From an uncultured virus (IMG/VR IMGVR_UViG_3300030098_004510) (taxonomy: Duplodnaviria; Heunggongvirae; Uroviricota; Caudoviricetes): a stretch of DNA of 20,000 bases. Below are positions 2-14,621 of the stretch, in pieces (position 1 is the stretch's first letter; every line of letters begins with the position of its first letter). The stretch lies in IMG/VR virus record IMGVR_UViG_3300030098_004510; one strand, 5' to 3'. The notes beneath the pieces are model-generated. The model had not been told where the DNA came from. It made no database searches and saw only the letters and a program-made list of their open reading frames with translations. Both the position numbers and the translations under genes were made by a program.

Positions 2-787
2 TTTGAACCAGAATTTGATGAGCCTGACATGGATGTATCTTACGAAACTGTTGAGATGGAAATGGAGATGGATTTTAATTTTGAGATGGATTTTGAAATG
101 GATATGCCTGACATGCCAGCCATGGAGATGGAAGAAATCGAAGTAGTTGCATTAGAATTTGAAATGGAGATGGAAATGGAAATGGATTTAGAAATGCCGG
201 AGATGGATATGCCTGAACCGGAGATGGAGACACCACAACCTGAAATGGACGAGGTCCAAGAAGAACCTATGCCAGAACCAGAAATGGAAGAACCGGAATC
301 TAAACCAGAAATGGAGGAGGTAAAAGATGAACCTACTGAAGAACCTGCTGAAGAGCCTACTGAAGATGTGGCAGAAGAGGCAGAGAACAAAGAGAGCGTA
401 TCAGAGGTTGAAGCAGATGAGGAGCAACCAGAAGATATGGAAGAAACAGAAGATAAGGGTAAAGCCGATAAGAGTAAAGACAATGAGAAACCTGTAAAAA
501 AACAAGAGCAAAAAGAAAAAGCTGCTAAGAAAATTGTAAAGAAAATGGGTGATAAAGGTAGATATGATTCTACTAACCAGACTAAAACACTCATAGTCAT
601 GCAGGTGCTAGGTGACACAAAGACTTTTTTTGACTCACAGCAACAGCTAGAGGATAGGGTCGGATTCTTTACAGATATGGTAATTCCTGATACAAAGATA
701 GAAGATAATAATATAGCAGGCTATTTTTTATTTGTCGGAAGTGATGGCCTGATGAATCAAATAGAGGAGAGCCAGTGGCAGAATTAG
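2..787 (+). CDS. Glu/Met/Pro-rich low-complexity protein, 5'-truncated
   Basis: The frame is open from position 2 (FEPEFDEPD) into the ORF at 29, so the true start lies upstream of the window. EM/EP repeats, then a Lys-rich linker, then a globular-looking C-terminus. The stop overlaps the next gene. Confidence 0.9.
   Translation, partial: FEPEFDEPDMDVSYETVEMEMEMDFNFEMDFEMDMPDMPAMEMEEIEVVALEFEMEMEMEMDLEMPEMDMPEPEMETPQPEMDEVQEEPMPEPEMEEPESKPEMEEVKDEPTEEPAEEPTEDVAEEAENKESVSEVEADEEQPEDMEETEDKGKADKSKDNEKPVKKQEQKEKAAKKIVKKMGDKGRYDSTNQTKTLIVMQVLGDTKTFFDSQQQLEDRVGFFTDMVIPDTKIEDNNIAGYFLFVGSDGLMNQIEESQWQN
53..228 (+). repeat. Imperfect coding hexamer repeats (GARATG/GATATG) encoding EM/DM dipeptides
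   Basis: gagatg gaaatg gagatg at 53-70 and gaaatg gagatg gaaatg gaaatg at 161-184, with further scattered copies. Confidence 0.75.
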
Positions 788-1896: not shown

Positions 1897-1961
1897 TGGA
1901 ACCTGTAACTATAGCTTATATTTTTTTTGGAACACTCTGGGTAATAGGCGTACTATCCTAA
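1896..1961 (+). CDS. 21-aa single-TM peptide MEPVTIAYIFFGTLWVIGVLS (not in ORF track)
   Basis: TAATG stop/start coupling at 1894-1898, stop TAA at 1959-1961, almost entirely hydrophobic. Confidence 0.6.
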   Translation: MEPVTIAYIFFGTLWVIGVLS

Positions 1962-2062
1962 ACCATAAACACACTGGACGTTTAGATCCATCATTCCATA
2001 CCTCAAGCCAAGGACCGTCACCTACTTTAGCATAGCCCACGCGTGCAGGCCATTGTTGCTTT

Positions 2063-2464
2063 CTATAGTTGCGCGTACTCCTTAACTTTCTTAAGCATTC
2101 CATGCACACCGTTATTTCTTCCTGGGGTTAATAAAGTATCTAACTTTAATATTTTGAATTCATCTTGATCAAACTTGTTAATGTCCTGGGCGCTCGAGCC
2201 ACTATACACGTCTGCTATCATGCTAACCATACCCTTCGATATAAGCGCAGCTGAGTCCGCCGTAAAATATATTTTATCATCAACAAAGTGTGGAACTAAC
2301 CAGGTCTGTGATTGACAACCAGGCACCTCAAATGATTGAACTTTATGTTCATCATTCATAGGTAAAGAATTTTTACCAAAGTCCATAATCCAAACAAACT
2401 TGTCTTGATCGCCGTCTATATTATTTAGAACTTGCGCGTATCTTTCTAACTTTCTTTTTATCAC
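2063..2464 (-). CDS. sufE: SufE-family sulfur acceptor (Fe-S cluster assembly), auxiliary metabolic gene
   Basis: VPGCQSQTW motif with the persulfide-accepting Cys, ADS..ISKG and TPGRNNG motifs. GTG start after AGAGG. Confidence 0.93.
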   Translation of the reverse strand: MIKRKLERYAQVLNNIDGDQDKFVWIMDFGKNSLPMNDEHKVQSFEVPGCQSQTWLVPHFVDDKIYFTADSAALISKGMVSMIADVYSGSSAQDINKFDQDEFKILKLDTLLTPGRNNGVHGMLKKVKEYAQL

Positions 2465-2582
2465 TCTTCCTCTTTTTAAATAATTTCATCCAACTTAATC
2501 TTGGTCCAAAATAAATTGCTTTATATTTTTGATTTAACCAATCGTATGCCCAATACCACTGCCAAACGTGTTTACTGCTCAT
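2421..2582 (-). CDS. 53-aa Trp/Tyr-rich peptide with basic tail (not in ORF track)
   Basis: MSSKHVWQWYWAYDWLNQKYKAIYFGPRLSWMKLFKKRKSDKKKVRKIRASSK. It fills the gap between 2572 and 2464 and overlaps both neighbours. Confidence 0.7.
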   Translation of the reverse strand: MSSKHVWQWYWAYDWLNQKYKAIYFGPRLSWMKLFKKRKSDKKKVRKIRASSK

Positions 2583-2760
2583 GACATTCTATAGAAAAAC
2601 GATAAAACTCATTTTGTTCATGCCATGACCAATCTTTTCTCATCTTCATACATTCTTCTTTTATCATAGGTTCGTTTAAAACAATCTGATTTCCAACGTA
2701 AACCCAATCATTACCATCAAAACCCCATAGACTAATGACTAGGACAAATAATTGGGTCAT
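2572..2760 (-). CDS. Small hypothetical protein with hydrophobic N-terminus and Cys pair
   Basis: ATGA overlap with the upstream gene, LFVLVISLW N-terminus, two Cys. Confidence 0.75.
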   Translation of the reverse strand: MTQLFVLVISLWGFDGNDWVYVGNQIVLNEPMIKEECMKMRKDWSWHEQNEFYRFSIECHEQ

Positions 2761-2972
2761 TTTAGTCTTTTACCCGGGTACAAACACACAGCCCACTCTC
2801 TTAAAGCCCGATACCGGGCAATTATAAAGGTTTTTATTTCCCAGAAAACAGCCTTTTCTTCTCCAGGATCCCAAACAGCCATTCTTTCGTGTTTTTGTCG
2901 TAAAGACTCACGATAACTAGCATCTAGTATATCTTGTTCCTTTTTCATGTGATCATAAAAGTCTTCAGTCAT
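2757..2972 (-). CDS. Hypothetical protein
   Basis: Start re-assigned to the ATG at 2972 (MTEDFYDH...), which gives an ATGACTGA overlap with the upstream stop. Confidence 0.65.
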   Translation of the reverse strand: MTEDFYDHMKKEQDILDASYRESLRQKHERMAVWDPGEEKAVFWEIKTFIIARYRALREWAVCLYPGKRLK

Positions 2973-3582
2973 TTTTATTTGGCATTTGAATAACATTATC
3001 ACGTTCTTTAAATTTTATTTTAGCATTAAATGCAATCGTGATACGTTGTCTGTTACTTCTATTAACATCTACGTCGTGTAAAAGATAAGATGGAAAACAT
3101 AACACATCACCATCGCTTGGAGCGTGTCCCATCATACTAGAGTGAGGCATGTGATCAGGAATCATTTTATACATTTGCTCATGTGTAGCAAATCTAATCA
3201 CACCTGTGTTGAATCCTTGTACATAATACACACCAGATAGATCTGCATCTGCACGGTAGTGTGAATGAAATATATTATTGCTTCCTACTTCATTTACATT
3301 AGTCCAATAATTAATAGCTGCATCCATAGGTCTTTGTGGAAAGTAATGATCCATGTAAGCTGACATAATCATACCAATCGGTTTCATTAATTCTGCTTCG
3401 CATTTGTATTTCATCATGCTACGCCAGCATCCAGCGTTCGTAGCTGGTAATCCTTTTGGATCCTTTTTTCTTTCCGCTTCTATCTCTGTCTTTAATAAGT
3501 TATTTAAATTCTCAAAATTATCCCATTTTTTATAAAATAATCTTGTGTCTTGTATTGGTACTTTAGCTATTATTTCTGTCAT
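2965..3582 (-). CDS. 2OG-Fe(II) oxygenase (TIGR02466-like)
   Basis: HSH...LSGVYYV and FPSYLLHDV...RITIAFN motifs (HxH...H metal triad and 2OG-binding Arg). Start re-assigned to 3582 after the GGAGA RBS. Confidence 0.88.
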   Translation of the reverse strand: MTEIIAKVPIQDTRLFYKKWDNFENLNNLLKTEIEAERKKDPKGLPATNAGCWRSMMKYKCEAELMKPIGMIMSAYMDHYFPQRPMDAAINYWTNVNEVGSNNIFHSHYRADADLSGVYYVQGFNTGVIRFATHEQMYKMIPDHMPHSSMMGHAPSDGDVLCFPSYLLHDVDVNRSNRQRITIAFNAKIKFKERDNVIQMPNKND

Positions 3583-3745
3583 GATTCTCCGTTGCACATT
3601 TTGGACCACATAAGAATATCATTTTATATTCTTGATCCGGGTTAAATTTTTTATCCAACCAATATAATAATTTCTTAAACCATTTACCACAGATTGAGCA
3701 TTTAAATTTAGGTCCTGGGCGCACGCTGCTTTTATCATACTCCAC
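3563..3745 (-). CDS. Small Zn-finger protein (CxxC...CxxxC)
   Basis: CSIC and CGPKC. Probable GTG start at 3745 after GAGGG, overlapping the upstream stop. Confidence 0.7.
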   Translation of the reverse strand: MEYDKSSVRPGPKFKCSICGKWFKKLLYWLDKKFNPDQEYKMIFLCGPKCATENHDRNNS

Positions 3746-4871
3746 AAAGACCCTCGCATTCATCCGCAAATTCTTCATCAAATGTTTCACCAAATAAATT
3801 ACCTTGTGCTTTTGGTTCCAAGAAGTTTATTTCTCCAAGTGGTTTAGCTGATTTATGTAGATATAATTTAGCTTCTGAATTTTTTAATCCATTTCTAATT
3901 AAGTTATCTACTTCCACCGCATCGGCAAAATCTTCTGGATAATTTTTCTGCATGTTTTTCCATTGATCATTGTGATGATAAGGACAACCTATACATGATG
4001 ACTTACCAGGCATAGGATGTTTCTTTATGTCACGGTACCATTGTAAACAATCCATACGTGACATCTTCATTTCTATTAAAGGCCAACGTGATGTCAACCA
4101 TGGTAGCCTAGCATTTTTCATACGCATGGCTTCATCTGTAGATATACCTATCCATTGTTCTACAATTACATCTTTAGGTACTCTATGTCTTGGCTTTACA
4201 CCAAGTAATTCTCTAATCTTTTTTTGTATAGGGATAACTTTATAATCATGTGTACACTGACGATATAGCATCCCTACACGTCCACCTTCACGTGCAGCAA
4301 ACAACGGTGGGTTTGGTACACGTCCAGCAAACGACTTTTCCTCTTCTTTTGACCCTGGTTCTGGGTTCGCTGCTTTGATAAGATCCTCACGGATACTACT
4401 TCTCTCCACAGTTATAAGCGGACAAATCGTTATTGCTTTTCTTAAATATTCTACATGCTCATACACAAACTTAGGCTCCCATCCCGTATCAGCAAATATC
4501 ATATAATCTGGTTTATGTTTTGTTAATCCTTCTTGTGCCATCAATGCTAAACATGATGATTGCACACCTGCGCCTAATGATAATATACGCATAGTAGGTT
4601 CACGTTGCTCGCCTTTACCTTCTGTGCTGTCGTATTCTGCGCGGTTACCATTTTTAAGTAAATTCGTTGTTTTAAAATATTTAGGTTCTACGGTAGCTGC
4701 AACTGCAGCCATGTTATTTAATTTCTTTTGATCAACTTTAGTGGACATTTGTTCAAGAACTTTTCTTCTTTCAAATTCCATTTGTTCTGCATTAATTGCA
4801 AAATTACTTTTAACATTACCAGCTCTGGCTTTGCCTTGTTCTCGGTACCCGGGTTTTTTAGTCTCTGTCAT
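3735..4871 (-). CDS. PAPS-reductase/DndC-like adenine nucleotide alpha-hydrolase-fold protein, Cys-rich
   Basis: Variant PP-loop ILSLGAGVQSS, IFADTGWEP, RQCTHDYK, WIGISTDE..R, KSSCIGCPYH and C-terminal ECEGLCGV. About 93 aa N-terminal extension. Confidence 0.82.
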   Translation of the reverse strand: MTETKKPGYREQGKARAGNVKSNFAINAEQMEFERRKVLEQMSTKVDQKKLNNMAAVAATVEPKYFKTTNLLKNGNRAEYDSTEGKGEQREPTMRILSLGAGVQSSCLALMAQEGLTKHKPDYMIFADTGWEPKFVYEHVEYLRKAITICPLITVERSSIREDLIKAANPEPGSKEEEKSFAGRVPNPPLFAAREGGRVGMLYRQCTHDYKVIPIQKKIRELLGVKPRHRVPKDVIVEQWIGISTDEAMRMKNARLPWLTSRWPLIEMKMSRMDCLQWYRDIKKHPMPGKSSCIGCPYHHNDQWKNMQKNYPEDFADAVEVDNLIRNGLKNSEAKLYLHKSAKPLGEINFLEPKAQGNLFGETFDEEFADECEGLCGV

Positions 4872-5379
4872 AGGCCTCTAGTTCTCTAATTGTTCTGATG
4901 ATTTTTTGCGTATAATATACGTCTTCAGCATATATTGCAAGTGTCATTACTAACTTTTCTAAATCAATTTCATCGCTAAAATGCTGGTTAATTCGCTCCT
5001 CTCTAAACTCATTATAATGATGATTCTTATTTAGTAACTCCATATAGTAAGATATGGATTCGCACTTTGTCTCAAAGATCCTAAGCCCCCACGTCGCATT
5101 AGGATTACTTAGCGGCTTTAGTTGATCATCTGTTGAGTCAAACGTGCGGATTCCGAGGAGGTTATTACCCTCACGAGCAAATCTAGATTTACCCCAATTT
5201 GATTCATGCACAGCTTGTGCAATTATTAAATTAACTGGAACCCTTTCTTCTTCTGAATGCATAGAATTAAGATGTAACGCACACGCACGCACCTGTTCTA
5301 TAAATTCATCATTGGTTTTATAATCCATTACTGGATTAAAGGATAAACAAACTAAAAGTGTCTTACAAATCCAGTTCAT
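4858..5379 (-). CDS. Glucosaminidase-family (GH73, FlgJ/Bax-like) peptidoglycan hydrolase
   Basis: IIAQAVHESNWGKS...NNLLGIR catalytic Glu motif and YAED..Y motif. Confidence 0.88.
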   Translation of the reverse strand: MNWICKTLLVCLSFNPVMDYKTNDEFIEQVRACALHLNSMHSEEERVPVNLIIAQAVHESNWGKSRFAREGNNLLGIRTFDSTDDQLKPLSNPNATWGLRIFETKCESISYYMELLNKNHHYNEFREERINQHFSDEIDLEKLVMTLAIYAEDVYYTQKIIRTIRELEAYDRD

Positions 5380-5528
5380 TCTTCCTCCTCTTCTTTTGGT
5401 CTATAAACATCTACATGACATTTACATTTAGGACACGATAAATTAGTGACCATGCCATAAGTTTCGTCGTCTTCTATGTCGTGATCTGCACCCCATATTA
5501 ATTCTGTTTGACAATGCCAACAATTCAT
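5376..5528 (-). CDS. 50-aa Zn-ribbon protein (not in ORF track)
   Basis: MNCWHCQTELIWGADHDIEDDETYGMVTNLSCPKCKCHVDVYRPKEEEEE, with ATGA overlaps at both ends (polymerase stop and glucosaminidase start). Confidence 0.85.
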   Translation of the reverse strand: MNCWHCQTELIWGADHDIEDDETYGMVTNLSCPKCKCHVDVYRPKEEEEE

Positions 5529-7369
5529 CCGCCCCAACTATCTCCTAAATCAACATCTACTTTTGATGGAACCTCTAATTTAACACAAGTCTCCATGACT
5601 TCTTTTATTTCATTAGCTTGTTTTTCATTTTGTACTGAACAATCTAATTCATCATGCACTTGAATCAAAGGAATCACTCCTAAGTTTTCGTACACTTCAA
5701 CCATGGCTTTCTTTGTCTGGTCAGCAGCTGATCCTTGAATCAATCTATTAAGAGCCTTGTAGGTGCCATATCTTTTTATAGCTTCCCCATATTCTACCTT
5801 CGCTTGATTCAATGGTAATGGTTTATGAACACCCCATTGTGTTGGTTCCCATAAATCAAATCTACATTTACGTCCAAGTAAAGTACGAATAACTCCTTTA
5901 GAATTAGCCCTATTCATAACTGCCTCCAACATGCCTTGCATAAATGGTACACGCGCACGGAAGTCATTAAGCATAGTCTTAGCTTCCGATGGCTCTAAAT
6001 CTAGCTCACGAGCTAGTTTATTATATCCCATTCCATACATTACACCAAGTCCAATAGTCTTCGCAAGACGTCTCTCACAACCCGCCATATCGGCCGTTTG
6101 TTGGTGAAAGTCGAGGTCTTTTTTATGATATGCTTCCTGTACTTCCCTAGCACCGGGCTGTTTGACGAGGCAGGCCCAATGAGTAAGTAGCCTTGGTTCT
6201 TGTTGCGAGTAATCTGCTTTGAGCCAATATTGACCCATCTCAGGAATGAATAACTTCCTAACATCTTTCGCAAACTGGCCACGGCTGGGGACCTGCTGTA
6301 AGTTAGGGTGATTATAAGAAAAACGGCCAGACACAGTCCCACCAGTATCAGACCTAATTTGATTAATGTGAGCATGTATTCTACCCTCCTCTGAATAGTT
6401 CATCAAACCCTGCAAGAATGTACCTCTTAACTTATTTAATTCACGTGCTTGCATGATTAATCTTGGCAGTTCATGTGGATGATCTGTCAAAAACATTTTA
6501 GTAAATGATGGCGCATCTGTCTTAGCTGTTCTTTCGTATGGTAAACTTAACGCATCAAAAGCTTTTGCAATTGAAGCTGCTGCCCATATCTCTATGTCCA
6601 AACCAGTTAAATGTTTAATGCGCTGCATTAATTTCTTTTCTTTATTATGAAACTTATCGTTTAACTGAATACATTTATATGTATCAAACCTAACACCACG
6701 ACGTGTCATATGGAATATAACATTAATTAATTTACATTCTACATCGTACACTGTTGTAAGATTGTCTTTAACAATCTCCCACGATAACTTCTCGTGTAAC
6801 TTGTAAGTTAAATCTGCATCTGCTTCCGCATACTCACCAACAAACTCTGCTGGTAATTTATACATTTCTGATTTTGGATTTACACCAAATGCATCAGCGG
6901 CTTCTTTAAGCTTTTGCTCATTCTTAAACTCTCCTAGATATTCATGAACAATACTATTGAGTGTATATGAATATCTATTCTCATCTATTAACGCAGCAGC
7001 TACCATCGTATCATGTATTCTACCTTTAACTTCTATACCAAGTGTCCATAACCAACCTATATCATACTGCGCATTGTGAAATACTTTTTCAATTGAATCA
7101 TCATGACAAATTGATTTTATATATTTTACAACTTTCTTTTCATCCATGTTGCCACCACCCTCATGTCCTATAGGATAATAAGCTTTAAAAGAAGCAGTCG
7201 CTACGGCAATGCCAATAACTTTTCCTTTTTTAGTTGGCCACCCTGGGCCGTGTTTCACGAGCTCTGGATCACATGTCTCCAAGTCAATCGCTACACGTCC
7301 CTCTATATGTGGAAACTCCGTGGGTGCTACCCATTGTGAAGTCACTGATTTAAAAAGATCCTGTGTCAT
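5525..7369 (-). CDS. polA: Family A DNA polymerase with 3'-5' exonuclease domain
   Basis: ExoI DLET, ExoII HNAQYD, ExoIII YAEAD; motif A DYSQQEPR, motif B RRLAKTIGLGVMYG, motif C QVHDEL. AGGAGA RBS. Confidence 0.97.
   Translation of the reverse strand: MTQDLFKSVTSQWVAPTEFPHIEGRVAIDLETCDPELVKHGPGWPTKKGKVIGIAVATASFKAYYPIGHEGGGNMDEKKVVKYIKSICHDDSIEKVFHNAQYDIGWLWTLGIEVKGRIHDTMVAAALIDENRYSYTLNSIVHEYLGEFKNEQKLKEAADAFGVNPKSEMYKLPAEFVGEYAEADADLTYKLHEKLSWEIVKDNLTTVYDVECKLINVIFHMTRRGVRFDTYKCIQLNDKFHNKEKKLMQRIKHLTGLDIEIWAAASIAKAFDALSLPYERTAKTDAPSFTKMFLTDHPHELPRLIMQARELNKLRGTFLQGLMNYSEEGRIHAHINQIRSDTGGTVSGRFSYNHPNLQQVPSRGQFAKDVRKLFIPEMGQYWLKADYSQQEPRLLTHWACLVKQPGAREVQEAYHKKDLDFHQQTADMAGCERRLAKTIGLGVMYGMGYNKLARELDLEPSEAKTMLNDFRARVPFMQGMLEAVMNRANSKGVIRTLLGRKCRFDLWEPTQWGVHKPLPLNQAKVEYGEAIKRYGTYKALNRLIQGSAADQTKKAMVEVYENLGVIPLIQVHDELDCSVQNEKQANEIKEVMETCVKLEVPSKVDVDLGDSWGG
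6040..6375 (-). CDS. Candidate overprinted gene in the +1 frame of polA: 111-aa protein with N-terminal TM helix and basic C-terminus
   Basis: AGGAGG SD (6385-6390) 9 nt before the ATG, local GC rise, and polA synonymous codons that avoid +1-frame stops across this interval. Confidence 0.55.
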   Translation of the reverse strand: MLTLIKLGLILVGLCLAVFLIITLTYSRSPAVASLRKMLGSYSFLRWVNIGSKQITRNKNQGYLLIGPASSNSPVLGKYRKHIIKKTSTFTNKRPIWRVVRDVLRRLLDLV

Positions 7370-7649: not shown

Positions 7650-9151
7650 ATTATGAACCCTCCTTCTCTCTGTGGTTGTACTATATGTAGTTGGTTACGA
7701 GCGCGTGTAGCCCCTACATAAAATACACGGCATTCATCATCTGAATCTTTTTCCATTGCTTCTTGTGACTTTCTTGATAAGTCTGTAAGCAACATTACAT
7801 TGTCTGCTTCTCCTCCTTTTGCCCCATGAATAGTACTAAGATTAATCTTAGGATTGGTTGATACCTGCCCTCTTATTTCTATGGCGCGTAAATATTCTTT
7901 ATCTCTATTTCCTACTTTATCAAAAGCTACATCCCATGGTCTACCTCCCATCAGTAATCCATGATGCATAACTAACTCTTCTAATTCATATTGTTCTTTG
8001 TCAGCCATCTTAAGATTTTTATGACCTCTTTCAATTCCTATCTGACTAGACATATATGAATATATATCTTTTACATCTGGTAATGCTACATGCTCACCAT
8101 TATTTAATTTCTTCCAAGCTTCTACAGCATTTAAAAGTTTACTAGATATAGGTAATTTATTATTTCTTTTATACAACATGCCTTGTAATCTAATGTCACG
8201 CTCTATTTCATCAAGCATATAATTTGTTCTAGCCATGACTAGCCAACTACCTGGATCTCTTAAATTAACTCCTTCTGGATAATTGTGATAAACAGCTAAG
8301 CCACTATTCTCTGTTCCATACCAACTCTTTGCCCTTCTAAATTTAACTCTATTAATTATTCTGTGTGATAAGTTTTGTATAACTTTAGAACAACGATAAG
8401 ATTGTTTAAGTGTTTCTATCTCACCTGGTAACTTAATAAAGTGTCTAACATCAGCTCCTGCCCAAGTATATATAGCTTGATCATCATCGCCACATACATA
8501 AACCTTTTTAGCATTTTGAGAAATCTTATCTACCATACGCCATTGTAATGCGCATAGATCTTGAGCTTCATCTATGAATACTACGTCTAGTTTAGGAACT
8601 GGACCAGACTCCAAATACAATTCAATCATGTCTGTAAAATCAAATACTTCTTTTTTCTTTTTAAATTCTTCTAGTGATCGTTGAGCTCTAAGTAATGCAT
8701 GCCATGAAACATCTTGTAAATTAGAATGATTATAATGGTGCTCTAATTCCATACACTTCATACGTGCTAAATTAACCTCATTTATCAATATGTTATCCGT
8801 CGTAAATATACCCCCGGAATCATTACCATCTGTCACAGATCCTAGATCCATGCCAAATGTTTGTGCAAACTCTTTATAATTATCACGCGACATAACTTCA
8901 GCTTTGGTTAAACCTAATTGATGAAACGCAAATGAATGTAGTGTTCTAAAATATGGTAAGTGTTGCTCTTCTAAATCAAACTTCTTCATTGCCCGGTCAC
9001 GCGCCTCGGTTGCAGCTTTCTTAGTAAAGGCTAGAAAAGCAATACGATCGGGTGGTGTGCCACGTGCCAATTCTTCTTCCACACGGTTCAATAGTGTATG
9101 TGTTTTTCCCGTACCAGGAGGACCTAATATAATTTTAGTTTTAGTTTCCAT
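7646..9151 (-). CDS. UvrD/Rep-like superfamily 1 DNA helicase
   Basis: GPPGTGKT, AFTKKA, RTLHS, DEAQD, GDDDQAIY, QSYR, STIHGAKGGE and FYVGATRA motifs. Confidence 0.95.
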   Translation of the reverse strand: METKTKIILGPPGTGKTHTLLNRVEEELARGTPPDRIAFLAFTKKAATEARDRAMKKFDLEEQHLPYFRTLHSFAFHQLGLTKAEVMSRDNYKEFAQTFGMDLGSVTDGNDSGGIFTTDNILINEVNLARMKCMELEHHYNHSNLQDVSWHALLRAQRSLEEFKKKKEVFDFTDMIELYLESGPVPKLDVVFIDEAQDLCALQWRMVDKISQNAKKVYVCGDDDQAIYTWAGADVRHFIKLPGEIETLKQSYRCSKVIQNLSHRIINRVKFRRAKSWYGTENSGLAVYHNYPEGVNLRDPGSWLVMARTNYMLDEIERDIRLQGMLYKRNNKLPISSKLLNAVEAWKKLNNGEHVALPDVKDIYSYMSSQIGIERGHKNLKMADKEQYELEELVMHHGLLMGGRPWDVAFDKVGNRDKEYLRAIEIRGQVSTNPKINLSTIHGAKGGEADNVMLLTDLSRKSQEAMEKDSDDECRVFYVGATRARNQLHIVQPQREGGFII

Positions 9152-9557
9152 TTCTAATCCTTTTCTCTTCTAGTCTATGACAATTAGCACATAATACTAT
9201 GCACTTCTTCCATTCTTCTTTCATCTTTTCAAATTGTTTTAAACTTGTTCTCCAGTATCTAGATACATTTAAAAATTTATCTGCTCTATTTAAATGGTGA
9301 AAATCTAAAACAACAGGGTCATCCTTATATCCACAATGAGCGCACCCTTGTTTTAATTTTTCATCATTCATAGATTTACTAATAAAATCATAAATTCTTT
9401 TTTTATTTCTTTTATTGTTTTGTATTTGTTTTTCAAATCCCTCTGGGCTTCTCCAATCCTCCCCATATGTTCCATCTTTTTTTAATCTATTTAATCGTCT
9501 ACCAATATATCGGTATCCATCCTCTCTCGTATCACCAAATTTAAAACGGGGCACCAT
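9141..9557 (-). CDS. HNH endonuclease (Zn-binding, McrA-like)
   Basis: CAHC...LDFHH...KCIVLCANCHR. AGGAGG RBS; the start could be 9560, 9557 or 9554. Confidence 0.85.
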   Translation of the reverse strand: MVPRFKFGDTREDGYRYIGRRLNRLKKDGTYGEDWRSPEGFEKQIQNNKRNKKRIYDFISKSMNDEKLKQGCAHCGYKDDPVVLDFHHLNRADKFLNVSRYWRTSLKQFEKMKEEWKKCIVLCANCHRLEEKRIRNGN

Positions 9558-11031
9558 CAACCTCCTTTATGTCAAACGCTGAATCTTGTTGCTGATATGC
9601 AGGCACACCCCACACTCTCACTGTTCTACCTTTAAGATTATATTTCTCACTCTTACCTTTTAAATGTCTTAATGCTTGTACTAACTGACCTGTGTTAAAG
9701 TAAGTAAATTTATTTCTTGTAAGATAATCTTGTAAGTCTTTTAATCTAAACCAGGTAATCCCATCTTCTGTCCATGGTTTACGTAATAATAATTCGTCGC
9801 GATTTAGGGCTTGGGCACGATCAGTACAAAACTCCTGGAGGTGAGCCTCAAACTGACCGGCCAATGACCCATCATCAGAAACAGGAATAGTATTAAGATT
9901 AACCATTAATCTCTCTATGTTTTCCTGCCACACTGACTGTTTTACTAGAGGTGGCATGTGATTCAAACTGTTCATACATTTCTTTTGAAACTTAGTTTGT
10001 ATCTGTAGCTCCTCTGTCTGTAATTCCATTCGTGCATCACCAACATCCAAGAACCAAACTGGTGGATCTGTTTCTAATTTTGTTAATGCACTAAACTCTA
10101 ATGATGCTCCATTACCACCTATACCATGCTTTCTTCCTCTACATACTTTAGCATTACAATAAGAACTAATTGGTGGTTCTTTACATCTATAACTATATTC
10201 TTTTTTCTCTAATTGTTTTTGAACTGTCACAACCTCTGATGCTGATAGAGGAGGTGTCATATAATCCTGGTTGTATTTTTCTAGTAATGTTTTCCAATTG
10301 TCTGGATCAAACTTACGTAGGTATACACCTATGTTAAACAAACCATTATTACGTGTGCCTTCTGGAAATCCTTGTGAGCATAATTGTTGTAAACAAGGTG
10401 GACCATCCTTTATGACTTCATCAGATACTTGGATTGCAACTTTGTCTATATCTTCTACAACGTATTTATCGTATAAGGTGTAGAACTCTGGCAATGACGC
10501 CGCTGTTCCATCATCTTTATAGGCATATCTCGTTGTACTTTTGGAATTATAATATGGAAGATTTAGGAAATTACCTAGATCTCCTTTTTCTATTAATATG
10601 GTTGATTGCTTGGGGAATACTTCTACAGAGGAATATCCGAGACCAGATGCAACCTCTCGTAATTTCTCTCGTACTAATCTGGCGGATACTGGGTTTTTAA
10701 GAAATAAAAATATATGCATCCCACCACTCTTAGATCTACATGGAACTAAGGGTAATTGTAAATTTCTAATTGTATTTATTATTTTTTTGTAATCAATTGG
10801 ATATGTATCAATATCAATACAGCCCCAACGAACTGTATTATCTGCCATAATAGGAATGATCCCTAATGAAGGACCATTACCATTAAGGTGTTCTAACCAT
10901 AATTCATCTTTAACTTCTTGCTTGACAATATAGGATTTACCCTCTTGCTTACCGTCAGCACGTTTCCCTTGGGATTGGTGCTGACCATAAGCTACGTCTA
11001 AGCCTTCAAATATAGATTTGAATCTTTCCAC
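9541..11031 (-). CDS. Archaeo-eukaryotic-type primase (prim-pol) with PriCT-like domain
   Basis: GCIDID (DxD), SKSGGMH, GNFLNLPY, PPCL..L...G..EGTRNNGLF and a Cys cluster. GTG start after GGAGG. Confidence 0.85.
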   Translation of the reverse strand: MERFKSIFEGLDVAYGQHQSQGKRADGKQEGKSYIVKQEVKDELWLEHLNGNGPSLGIIPIMADNTVRWGCIDIDTYPIDYKKIINTIRNLQLPLVPCRSKSGGMHIFLFLKNPVSARLVREKLREVASGLGYSSVEVFPKQSTILIEKGDLGNFLNLPYYNSKSTTRYAYKDDGTAASLPEFYTLYDKYVVEDIDKVAIQVSDEVIKDGPPCLQQLCSQGFPEGTRNNGLFNIGVYLRKFDPDNWKTLLEKYNQDYMTPPLSASEVVTVQKQLEKKEYSYRCKEPPISSYCNAKVCRGRKHGIGGNGASLEFSALTKLETDPPVWFLDVGDARMELQTEELQIQTKFQKKCMNSLNHMPPLVKQSVWQENIERLMVNLNTIPVSDDGSLAGQFEAHLQEFCTDRAQALNRDELLLRKPWTEDGITWFRLKDLQDYLTRNKFTYFNTGQLVQALRHLKGKSEKYNLKGRTVRVWGVPAYQQQDSAFDIKEVDGAPF

Positions 11032-12802: not shown

Positions 12803-14239
12803 ATGTATAAATTTAAAACTGAGCCATATGAGCATCAGAAAGATGCGTTAAAAAAATGCTGGAATAAAGAATCCTTTGCTATCTTTGCAGAGATGGGAAC
12901 AGGTAAAACTAAAATTGCATTAGATAATGCATGCATATTATATAATAAAGGTAAAATAGATCGGTTACTTGTGGTTGCTCCAAAAGGTACGTATATGAAT
13001 TGGGTGGACCAGGAAATACCCACCCACGTACCAGACTATATTGAAAGAAATGTATTGGCATGGAAACCAAACATTACGGATAAATATGAGCAGCAATTAA
13101 AAGCTATTCGTGATTCTAACGATTATAAATTTAAAATATTTGTAATGAATGTAGAATCTCTTTCTACAAAGAAAGGTATTTATTATGCTAAATTATTTTT
13201 GACTGGAAAGTCAATGATGATTGTAGATGAAAGCACAACAATTAAAAATCCACAGGCTAAAAGAACTAAAAATATTTTATCATTAGCCAGAGAAGCCAAA
13301 TACCGACGAATATTAACAGGATCTCCAGTAACCCAGTCACCAATGGATTTATGGGCACAGATGGATTTCCTAGATCCTGAGATACTTGGTCAACAAAGTT
13401 TTTATGCATTTAGAACTCGCTATGCAGTTGTTATAACAGCAAATGCTGCTGGTGGCACGCATAAATACCAGAAGATTGTTAAATTTAAAAACCTAGCACA
13501 ATTAGGACAGTTAGTATCACCGCATTCTTATCGTATTTTAAAGAAAGATTGCTTAGATTTACCGGAAAAGACATTTACTAAGCGTGAAATAGAATTAACT
13601 GATGAACAAAAACAAGCTTATGGTGAAATGAAAGCTAACGCTATGACTATATTAAAAGGTGAGTCATTAACTGCTGTTAATGTGTTAACACAACTAATGA
13701 GACTACATCAAATAACATGTGGGCATATGAAGACAGATAGTGGTGATACCTTAAATCTTAAAAATAATAGATTAGATGAATTAATGCAGATACTAGCAGA
13801 GACATCTGGTAAAGCAATTATCTGGGCCAATTACATTCATGACATATTAAATATAGAAGCAGCTATTAAAAAAGAATACGGTCATACTTCTTATTGTACC
13901 TATTATGGTGCAACCAAGGCAGAAGATAGACAACGTTGTATTTATGATTTTCAAAACAAAATGAATGATTGTCGTTTCTTTATAGGAAACACGCAGACAG
14001 GTGGATACGGAATTACCTTAACTGCTGCGAGCACAGTTATTTATTATTCTAATAATTATGATCTAGAGAAAAGAATTCAATCTGAAGATAGAGCACACCG
14101 TATAGGTCAAAAGAATCCAGTGTTATATATTGATTTAGTTTCCAAAGGGACCGTTGATGAAAAAATCATTAAGTCCCTTCGGAACAAGGTTAACATCGCT
14201 AAAGAAATTAGCGGTGAAGAACTTTCTAAGTGGATTTAA
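12803..14239 (+). CDS. SNF2-family (SF2) helicase/ATPase
   Basis: HQ Q-motif, EMGTGKT, VAP, DEST, LTGSP, GGYGITL and QSEDRAHRIGQ motifs. Confidence 0.95.
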   Translation: MYKFKTEPYEHQKDALKKCWNKESFAIFAEMGTGKTKIALDNACILYNKGKIDRLLVVAPKGTYMNWVDQEIPTHVPDYIERNVLAWKPNITDKYEQQLKAIRDSNDYKFKIFVMNVESLSTKKGIYYAKLFLTGKSMMIVDESTTIKNPQAKRTKNILSLAREAKYRRILTGSPVTQSPMDLWAQMDFLDPEILGQQSFYAFRTRYAVVITANAAGGTHKYQKIVKFKNLAQLGQLVSPHSYRILKKDCLDLPEKTFTKREIELTDEQKQAYGEMKANAMTILKGESLTAVNVLTQLMRLHQITCGHMKTDSGDTLNLKNNRLDELMQILAETSGKAIIWANYIHDILNIEAAIKKEYGHTSYCTYYGATKAEDRQRCIYDFQNKMNDCRFFIGNTQTGGYGITLTAASTVIYYSNNYDLEKRIQSEDRAHRIGQKNPVLYIDLVSKGTVDEKIIKSLRNKVNIAKEISGEELSKWI

Positions 14240-14621
14240 TTTTTATTTGTTTTGGTCTTTCAGCCTCAGGTATTTCCCTGTGGTAAGAAACCTTAAGTAA
14301 TCCATCTTTCAGTTCAGCATTGTTAACGACAATCTGTTTATGAAGTTGGAATCTTTTAATAAAGCTTCTATCAGAAATACCTTTATGCATTAAATCTTCC
14401 TGCAATTCTTTTTCTTTGCATCCAGAAATACTTAAAGTATTTTCTTTTACCTCAACTTTTAAATCTTTCTCAGCGAACCCTGCAACAGCAAATTCAATGA
14501 CCCCTTTGTCATCTTTTTCTTTTATGTTGTATGGTGGGTAAGTTGAAACTCTTCTGAAATTATCAAAAAAGTCATTTTGAAAACCAAGAAAATGGTTACG
14601 TAATATATCTAGTTCGTTCAT
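14226..14621 (-). CDS. hsp20: Small heat-shock protein (Hsp20/IbpA-like)
   Basis: YPPYNI, AVAGF, HKGISDRSF..F.L, A.LKDGLL and IPEAERPKQIKI motifs. AGGAGGT RBS. Confidence 0.95.
   Translation of the reverse strand: MNELDILRNHFLGFQNDFFDNFRRVSTYPPYNIKEKDDKGVIEFAVAGFAEKDLKVEVKENTLSISGCKEKELQEDLMHKGISDRSFIKRFQLHKQIVVNNAELKDGLLKVSYHREIPEAERPKQIKIKST

Follow-up and report, generated by a model that had tools for sequence, protein, structure and literature searches.

A PP-loop enzyme and SufE encoded together in a clade of marine phages: a possible DNA sulfur-insertion enzyme

The PP-loop enzyme and SufE

The DNA analysed here is a stretch of 20,000 nucleotides (the window) that forms the final 20 kb of the uncultured virus record IMGVR_UViG_3300030098_004510 (67,544 nt, 98% complete). 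It carries a gene for a PP-loop (AANH-fold) enzyme of 378 amino acids (aa) at 3735..4871 (-), an SspD/PptA-like member of PHROG 424, and a gene for SufE (133 aa) at 2063..2464 (-). We regard the enzyme as a core part of the system discussed below, and we infer a core role for SufE as well. The open reading frames (ORFs) from the enzyme to SufE, the last gene in the leftward direction, are all encoded on the minus strand and form a chain of overlapping frames. The initial annotation, made from the sequence of the window, had placed this chain downstream of the DNA polymerase gene polA; the overlapping chain stands, but polA and the enzyme do not adjoin, a 53-aa ORF and a glucosaminidase gene (PF01832) lying between them. 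Because DNA contigs of a sequencing run not marked as a possible source of the record (run X6) cover 30 of 30 bins at window 1900-5400, with several pieces matching without any differing letter, this region is no assembly artefact.

The variant PP-loop and the cysteine groups described in the initial annotation are all present in the enzyme, namely SLGAGVQSS (residues 98-106), RQCT (204-207), CIGCP (293-297) and CEGLC (372-376). Homology to the enzyme extends to at least 6,215 of the 8,000 candidates scored. Among 67 aligned homologues, picked from 120 listed by thinning near-copies, six cysteines (C206, C275, C293, C296, C372 and C376) are invariant, as are the PP-loop, D128, E132, R204, K211, D246, E247 and R250. 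Some of these cysteines would presumably hold an iron-sulfur (Fe-S) cluster. The profile of PHROG 424 matches enzyme residues 53-378 (E = 4.6e-45), the invariant residues are shared with 11 distant members of this family, and the median ratio of nonsynonymous to synonymous substitution rates (dN/dS) is 0.077.

The PADLOC SspD model matches the enzyme over residues 204-325 (E = 1.5e-10), a partial match to a model for which no curated cut-off is given, in a scan that covered five window proteins only. When 12 distant family members were scanned, the SspD model matched all 12, whereas the BrxP model matched two and the DndC model one. The only solved chain matching the enzyme at E < 0.001 is PptA (PDB 21fy_C; E = 4.2e-4 with the single sequence), which was co-deposited with the Escherichia coli cysteine desulfurase IscS in PDB 21FY. 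When a profile built from 12 distant family members is used instead, the E value of this match falls to 1.7e-6, and the motifs G-x-x-x-x-E-x-x-R, R-x-DC and CxGC are common to the enzyme and PptA. The curated cysH model TIGR00434 finds no candidate anywhere in the phage's own genome, the PAPS_reduct family (PF01507) reaches 16.4 bits on the enzyme and stays below its cut-off of 22.5, and E. coli CysH does not align over its full length but over 100 N-terminal columns only, the nucleotide-binding part, with a probability of 59. The DndC model TIGR03183 has no match to the enzyme. The SspD and PptA matches, with the failure of TIGR00434 and PF01507, support the earlier view that this is no canonical CysH but a protein of the DndC/SspD-type fold; by sequence, the enzyme appears nearer to SspD/PptA-like sulfur-insertion enzymes than to CysH.

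The structure model of the enzyme has a PP-loop fold, with a predicted local distance difference test (pLDDT) value of 79, falling below 50 at the termini, and a predicted template modelling (pTM) score of 0.76. Because CysH, LarE, NcsA, TilS and TtuA are tied among the fold matches at 8-17% identity, the fold does not choose a function for the enzyme. What sets apart the enzymes of the clade, defined here by at least 65% identity to the window enzyme, is an N-terminal extension: 75-128 residues precede the PP-loop in all 140 distinct clade enzymes, compared with 10-32 residues in 20 enzymes outside the clade. This clade-specific extension is about 90 aa long in the window enzyme, and in 113 sequences conservation reaches 95% or more at 29 of the first 90 positions.

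The presence of SufE in the chain, as first annotated, is confirmed by its match to PF02657 (108 bits against a cut-off of 27) and by its kept acceptor cysteine. In an alignment to solved SufE chains, Cys50 of the phage protein aligns with Cys51 of E. coli SufE, the acceptor cysteine. This residue is invariant in 18 diverse copies, the TPxR motif is kept, and a median dN/dS of 0.12 over 136 pairs indicates purifying selection. SufE is at most 38% identical to its matches in 151 sampled bacterial genomes, and it is therefore an old viral lineage; it also scores below the enterobacterial equivalog cut-off. No cysteine desulfurase was found in the phage genome. A P. ubique gene called sufE has been described as NifU-like (PMC2864753) and appears as K04488 in PMC9516812, so that true SufE may be missing from a host of the SAR11 group, should the phage have one.

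Co-occurrence with sufE and the wider neighbourhood of the enzyme

In loci of the clade selected by polA, the enzyme follows in 39 of the 39 that have at least 1.5 kb downstream (67 loci in total, the 28 shorter ones being left out). When loci were selected by the enzyme or by polA, sufE follows the enzyme in all 50 whose sequence extends for 2 kb or as far as a marker gene, 76 of the 126 loci being left out of this count. The reverse search gave a similar picture: the enzyme lies upstream in 88 of 94 distinct sufE loci, and the other six start no more than 344 nt from the edge of the locus (58 of 58 matches and the best 80 of 116 matches were kept in the sufE scans). The sufE family of this clade is thus never seen without the enzyme where the contig is long enough, and the synteny check proposed with the initial annotation shows the two genes kept together throughout the clade.

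At many loci (L021-L030 and others) the enzymes are 82-93% identical to that of the window, but polA is only 62-66% identical; exchange has thus affected polA more freely than it has the enzyme gene.

Outside the clade, the enzyme is found next to genes of other kinds. In the best 80 bacterial loci, of which 75 had a callable upstream ORF, this ORF encodes ArdC in 46, a ParB-N protein in 4 and a C5 methylase in 1. No sulfate-assimilation gene was identified among these upstream neighbours or among the ORFs scanned in the phage genome. Plasmid records show the same ardC-enzyme arrangement, and 110 of the 181 plasmid records matching the enzyme are from Agrobacterium. In sister marine phages, a short form of the enzyme lies between a helicase and polA, or beside or near a C5 methylase (three such methylases were picked by eye and later confirmed).

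Some further loci were met in these surveys. The pair of ardC and a PAPS-like gene is common on alphaproteobacterial plasmids and integrated elements (L272-L351, L352). In two Dehalococcoidia genomes (L347, L349), an enzyme homologue lies within an ORF of 540-553 aa that is followed by a gene for a GmrSD N-terminal domain, which looks like a defence locus. A 'phage' record with SufE (L231, MW462191.1) names EvgS, SsuA and Tet(X4) too and resembles a contig of bacterial origin.

The intervening cassette and the phage genome

Between the enzyme and sufE lie genes that vary from one relative to the next. A small protein with four cysteines in a CxxC...CxxxC arrangement is encoded at 3563..3745 (-), its start being uncertain (3793 in the ORF listing). 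It has no Pfam or PHROG match over cut-off, so that the 'Zn finger' of the initial annotation is this pattern only; its median dN/dS is 0.23. A 2-oxoglutarate (2OG)-Fe(II) oxygenase at 2965..3582 (-), TIGR02466-like, matches PF13759 at 55 bits (cut-off 27), keeps H106, H108, H169 and R180 invariant in six aligned sequences, and is under purifying selection (dN/dS 0.088). In a comparison with the base-modifying 2OG families (TET/JBP, AlkB), it matched only PF13759, phrog_81 and TIGR02466. A relative that lacks sufE (L211) has a 56%-identical copy of the oxygenase about 6 kb from its enzyme. Three small overlapping ORFs (71, 62 and 53 aa) at 2421..2972 (-) are patchy among relatives and have no Pfam, PHROG or NCBIfam match.

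Of the 92 loci that contain the enzyme together with sufE, 55 have the four-cysteine protein and 43 have the oxygenase; 35 have both of these and 29 have neither. The cassette holds exchangeable genes, including other, unrelated 2OG oxygenases in the same slot, and eight non-orthologous 2OG families are reported for HTVC023P-type phages (PMC9599517, excerpt). A zf-CHCC gene stands immediately before sufE in 11 of the 92 loci (e.g. L253:9730-10014), and in two (L258:1693-2079 and one more) the cassette includes a DUF59/FeS_assembly_P gene, of an Fe-S assembly family. The four-cysteine protein, the oxygenase and the small ORFs are passengers outside the mechanism considered below. As side observations, the first part of the 71-aa ORF of the window (2757-2972), which is without the finger, matches the C-terminal tail of the zf-CHCC protein with 47% identity over 36 aa. 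A small cassette ORF found in 44 loci (L112:7563-7772) has a weak match, below cut-off (E = 0.003), to the N-terminal helix-turn-helix of GcrA, a hint of an alphaproteobacterial host.

Upstream of the enzyme lies the glucosaminidase-type peptidoglycan hydrolase (4858..5379 (-)), which is missing in many relatives, and then DNA polymerase A (5525..7369 (-), PF00476); we treat both as context. The polymerase is 49% identical to that of Pelagibacter phage HTVC023P and 52% to that of DSL-LC04, which places the phage near the HTVC023P type. Moreover, most sequencing runs containing the stretch are marine metagenomes; the virus is a marine phage of the HTVC023P type. Pfam names genes for a primase, a UvrD helicase and an SNF2 helicase in the window. 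The primase gene, of the archaeo-eukaryotic primase (AEP) type, is at 9541-11031 (-), and an HNH endonuclease gene at 9141-9560 (-) is inserted between it and the UvrD helicase. Primase residues C213, C283, C292 and C297 are invariant across six distant relatives, in a spacing that resembles the Fe-S domain of archaeal and eukaryotic primase large subunits; Pfam and PDB matches gave no confirmation of such a domain.

The genome also has genes for Hsp20 and a GroES-like (Cpn10) protein (window 14226-14621 (-) and L506:7234-7737). Window positions 29-787 (+) encode the C-terminal part of a 561-aa ORF that has a very Met/Glu-rich low-complexity stretch and no family match. The whole genome contains no ACTAGT, against 26 occurrences expected on both strands, and uses GAATTC, GGATCC and GATATC less than expected.

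Interpretation and comparison with known systems

The explanation that we favour is a single-gene DNA sulfur-insertion, anti-defence enzyme to which SufE possibly feeds sulfur. Taken as a whole it is a tentative explanation, somewhat short of an even chance, and its parts stand differently. The DNA-sulfur role of the enzyme, judged from homology and neighbourhood, is slightly favoured, and once that role is granted, a real service by SufE is fairly probable from the one fixed pairing and the shared extension. The enzyme would bind ATP at the PP-loop and adenylate a DNA phosphate, and sulfur held on an enzyme cysteine or an Fe-S cluster would then be swapped in, as proposed for DndC/SspD; DNA is the presumed substrate and phosphorothioate the presumed product. 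The proposed source of the sulfur is a host cysteine desulfurase. SufE would relay persulfide from a host SufS-type desulfurase to the enzyme, or raise the Fe-S supply, and the N-terminal extension may serve docking. New phage DNA would likely be shielded from host restriction by the sulfur mark. A more specific form of this proposal, a two-gene viral phosphorothioation in which a PptA/SspD-like writer uses its N-terminal arm to dock the phage SufE, which taps host SufS, is rather unlikely.

Several observations weigh against the favoured explanation. The PptA match is weak and confined to the C-terminal half, about 110 residues, and a literature search for PptA found no paper, so that its link to IscS is the shared PDB entry. 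Validated phosphorothioate systems are reported to require a partner NTPase (PMC12914056, excerpt), and none adjoins the enzyme, though the genome has helicases. The bacterial loci with an ArdC neighbour belong for the most part to related mobile elements and do not count as independent events. As for SufE, the two genes never touch, the gap between them being 511-3762 nt (median 1064). The pairwise identities of the enzyme and SufE are correlated (0.51), but this is explicable by linkage because the values for enzyme and oxygenase (0.45) and for oxygenase and SufE (0.42) are nearly as high; that for polA and the enzyme is 0.24. Beyond the clade, sufE was found in none of the 17 long records from sister lineages that have the short enzyme (six of them at least 90% complete; clade controls 5 of 5), in none of 146 further viral loci with the enzyme, and in none of the best 80 bacterial loci, three of four host genomes checked having sufE elsewhere. 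Likewise, no accession is common to the 50 GenBank phage records that have the enzyme and the three that match SufE. Because the enzyme is so widespread without sufE, SufE is not required by the enzyme family and the pairing is one evolutionary event, which could be co-inheritance. Independent distribution of the two genes had been named at the outset as a refutation; it is seen on one side, as the enzyme is widespread without sufE, and not on the other, as this sufE family was not seen without the enzyme on contigs of sufficient length. The initial interpretation as a whole is partly supported.

The strongest alternative, nearly as likely as the favoured reading, is that the enzyme is a DNA-modifying, anti-defence protein that takes sulfur straight from the host desulfurase, as PptA seems to do with IscS, and that SufE is an unrelated, general Fe-S booster, serving the primase or host metabolism, co-inherited from the ancestor of the clade. 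The wide occurrence of the enzyme without sufE and the variable cassette that separates the two genes agree with this, and the chains found in 21fy show IscS, not SufE. Viral sufE without sufS has been reported in marine viromes and taken as a general Fe-S booster (PMC8940887, excerpt), and the primase with its four invariant cysteines could be another Fe-S client. However, sister lineages that lack sufE have the same primase cysteines, sufE persists in all 50 informative loci although most genes around it have been exchanged, and the extension and sufE mark the same clade.

It is less likely, indeed improbable, that the target of the enzyme is not the DNA backbone and that, like other PP-loop enzymes, it thiolates or adenylates another substrate (a base, tRNA, a nucleotide in free form or a protein of host defence), since the profiles single out SspD and PptA and the neighbours are ArdC, ParB-N, DNA methylases and replication genes. 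The four-gene base hypermodification, the widest form of the initial annotation, in which the oxygenase would hydroxylate a base and the enzyme, the Zn protein and SufE would add sulfur, is very improbable: the ORFs do overlap in a chain and the oxygenase is under purifying selection, but the Zn protein and the oxygenase occur together in only a minority of enzyme-sufE loci and are both missing in 29, unrelated 2OG oxygenases take its place in the exchangeable gap, phages of this type carry several non-orthologous 2OG families, and a base modification by the oxygenase finds no support, a backbone phosphorothioate fitting the homology better. Equally improbable is a true adenosine phosphosulfate (APS)/phosphoadenosine phosphosulfate (PAPS) reductase that would aid the host in assimilating sulfate, sufE being a further gene of sulfur metabolism. 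In its favour, the names of PHROG 424 and of GenBank matches, the CysH structures among the top fold matches and a C-terminal E-C-x-G tail that resembles the ECG motif of reductases can be cited, against the failed cysH and PAPS_reduct models, the short CysH alignment and the lack of any identified sulfate-assimilation gene among the neighbours or in the genome.

It is routine to class phage 'cysH' and sufE among the auxiliary metabolic genes by which sulfur and Fe-S metabolism in the ocean is reshaped. Because the nearest characterised and solved relatives of the enzyme are DNA sulfur writers and its neighbours in other genomes are anti-restriction genes, such an assignment to metabolism is probably mistaken for this family, which comprises more than 6,000 protein clusters. 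Should SufE serve the enzyme, viral sufE would be a counter-defence part and not a host booster. If the two-gene proposal is true, it would be a virus-made sulfur relay by which abundant ocean phages mark their DNA in Suf-type hosts without the Dnd/Ssp ATPase, and the two-gene set offers a simple test of phage phosphorothioate writing without the usual ATPase.

Among known systems, PptA (21FY chain C) is the only solved sequence match and has a similar core size (270 aa), but it was deposited with IscS as partner, while the protein supplied by this phage is SufE, and the window enzyme has the 90-aa N-terminal extension. SspD, BrxP and DndC share with the enzyme a PP-loop, PAPS-reductase-like domain with conserved cysteines; they are described as the sulfur-inserting writers of phosphorothioate systems, in need of a host or own cysteine desulfurase (PMC10853773 and PMC12914056, excerpts), and BrxP with BrxC yielded phosphorothioate in a host described with the SufS desulfurase (PMC12914056, same excerpt). 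The window enzyme differs in being encoded by a virus without sspB/sspC, dndD/dndE or brxC neighbours. None of the sspBC, dndDE and brxC families was found among the window ORFs or, with Pfam, among 62 other ORFs of the genome, which bears out the initial statement that no other dnd/ssp genes are visible and that the system would not be canonical phosphorothioation. SAR11 bacteria are reported to have Dnd and Ssp-like systems (PMC13712998, excerpt), and unclassified marine motifs that might be phosphorothioate have been mentioned (PMC8919816, excerpt). The SufE/CsdE acceptors are matched over cut-off by the phage SufE, with the acceptor cysteine and TPxR kept, but the phage gene stands outside any suf/csd operon in a genome without a desulfurase.

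A phage PAPS-domain gene that counters phosphorothioate defence is known from Vibrio phage 44E38.1, whose p0018 PAPS-Dam fusion let the phage escape Dnd (10.1101/2021.05.05.442762, excerpt). It differs from the window enzyme in its fusion to the Dam methylase and in that no SufE is reported in that excerpt. An anti-defence role has also been proposed for phage PAPS reductases (PMC13551039, excerpt), a role left open in PMC11437467 and read as metabolic in PMC10434257. Within PHROG 424, HTVC034P gp12 and members from Thermus phage P23-77, Salisaeta phage SSIP-1, mycobacterial prophages and an ardC neighbourhood on the Ti plasmid share 25-50% core identity and the same invariant residues with the enzyme, but all are short forms that lack the extension and have no sufE, under the database name 'phosphoadenosine phosphosulfate reductase'. 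The enzyme is a PHROG 424 member that probably works most like SspD/PptA; it is no CysH and, with no partner genes found, stands outside the Dnd, Ssp and BREX-4 systems. The pairing of the enzyme with SufE and the N-terminal extension were not found in the searched literature; the enzyme family and its suggested anti-defence role are already known.

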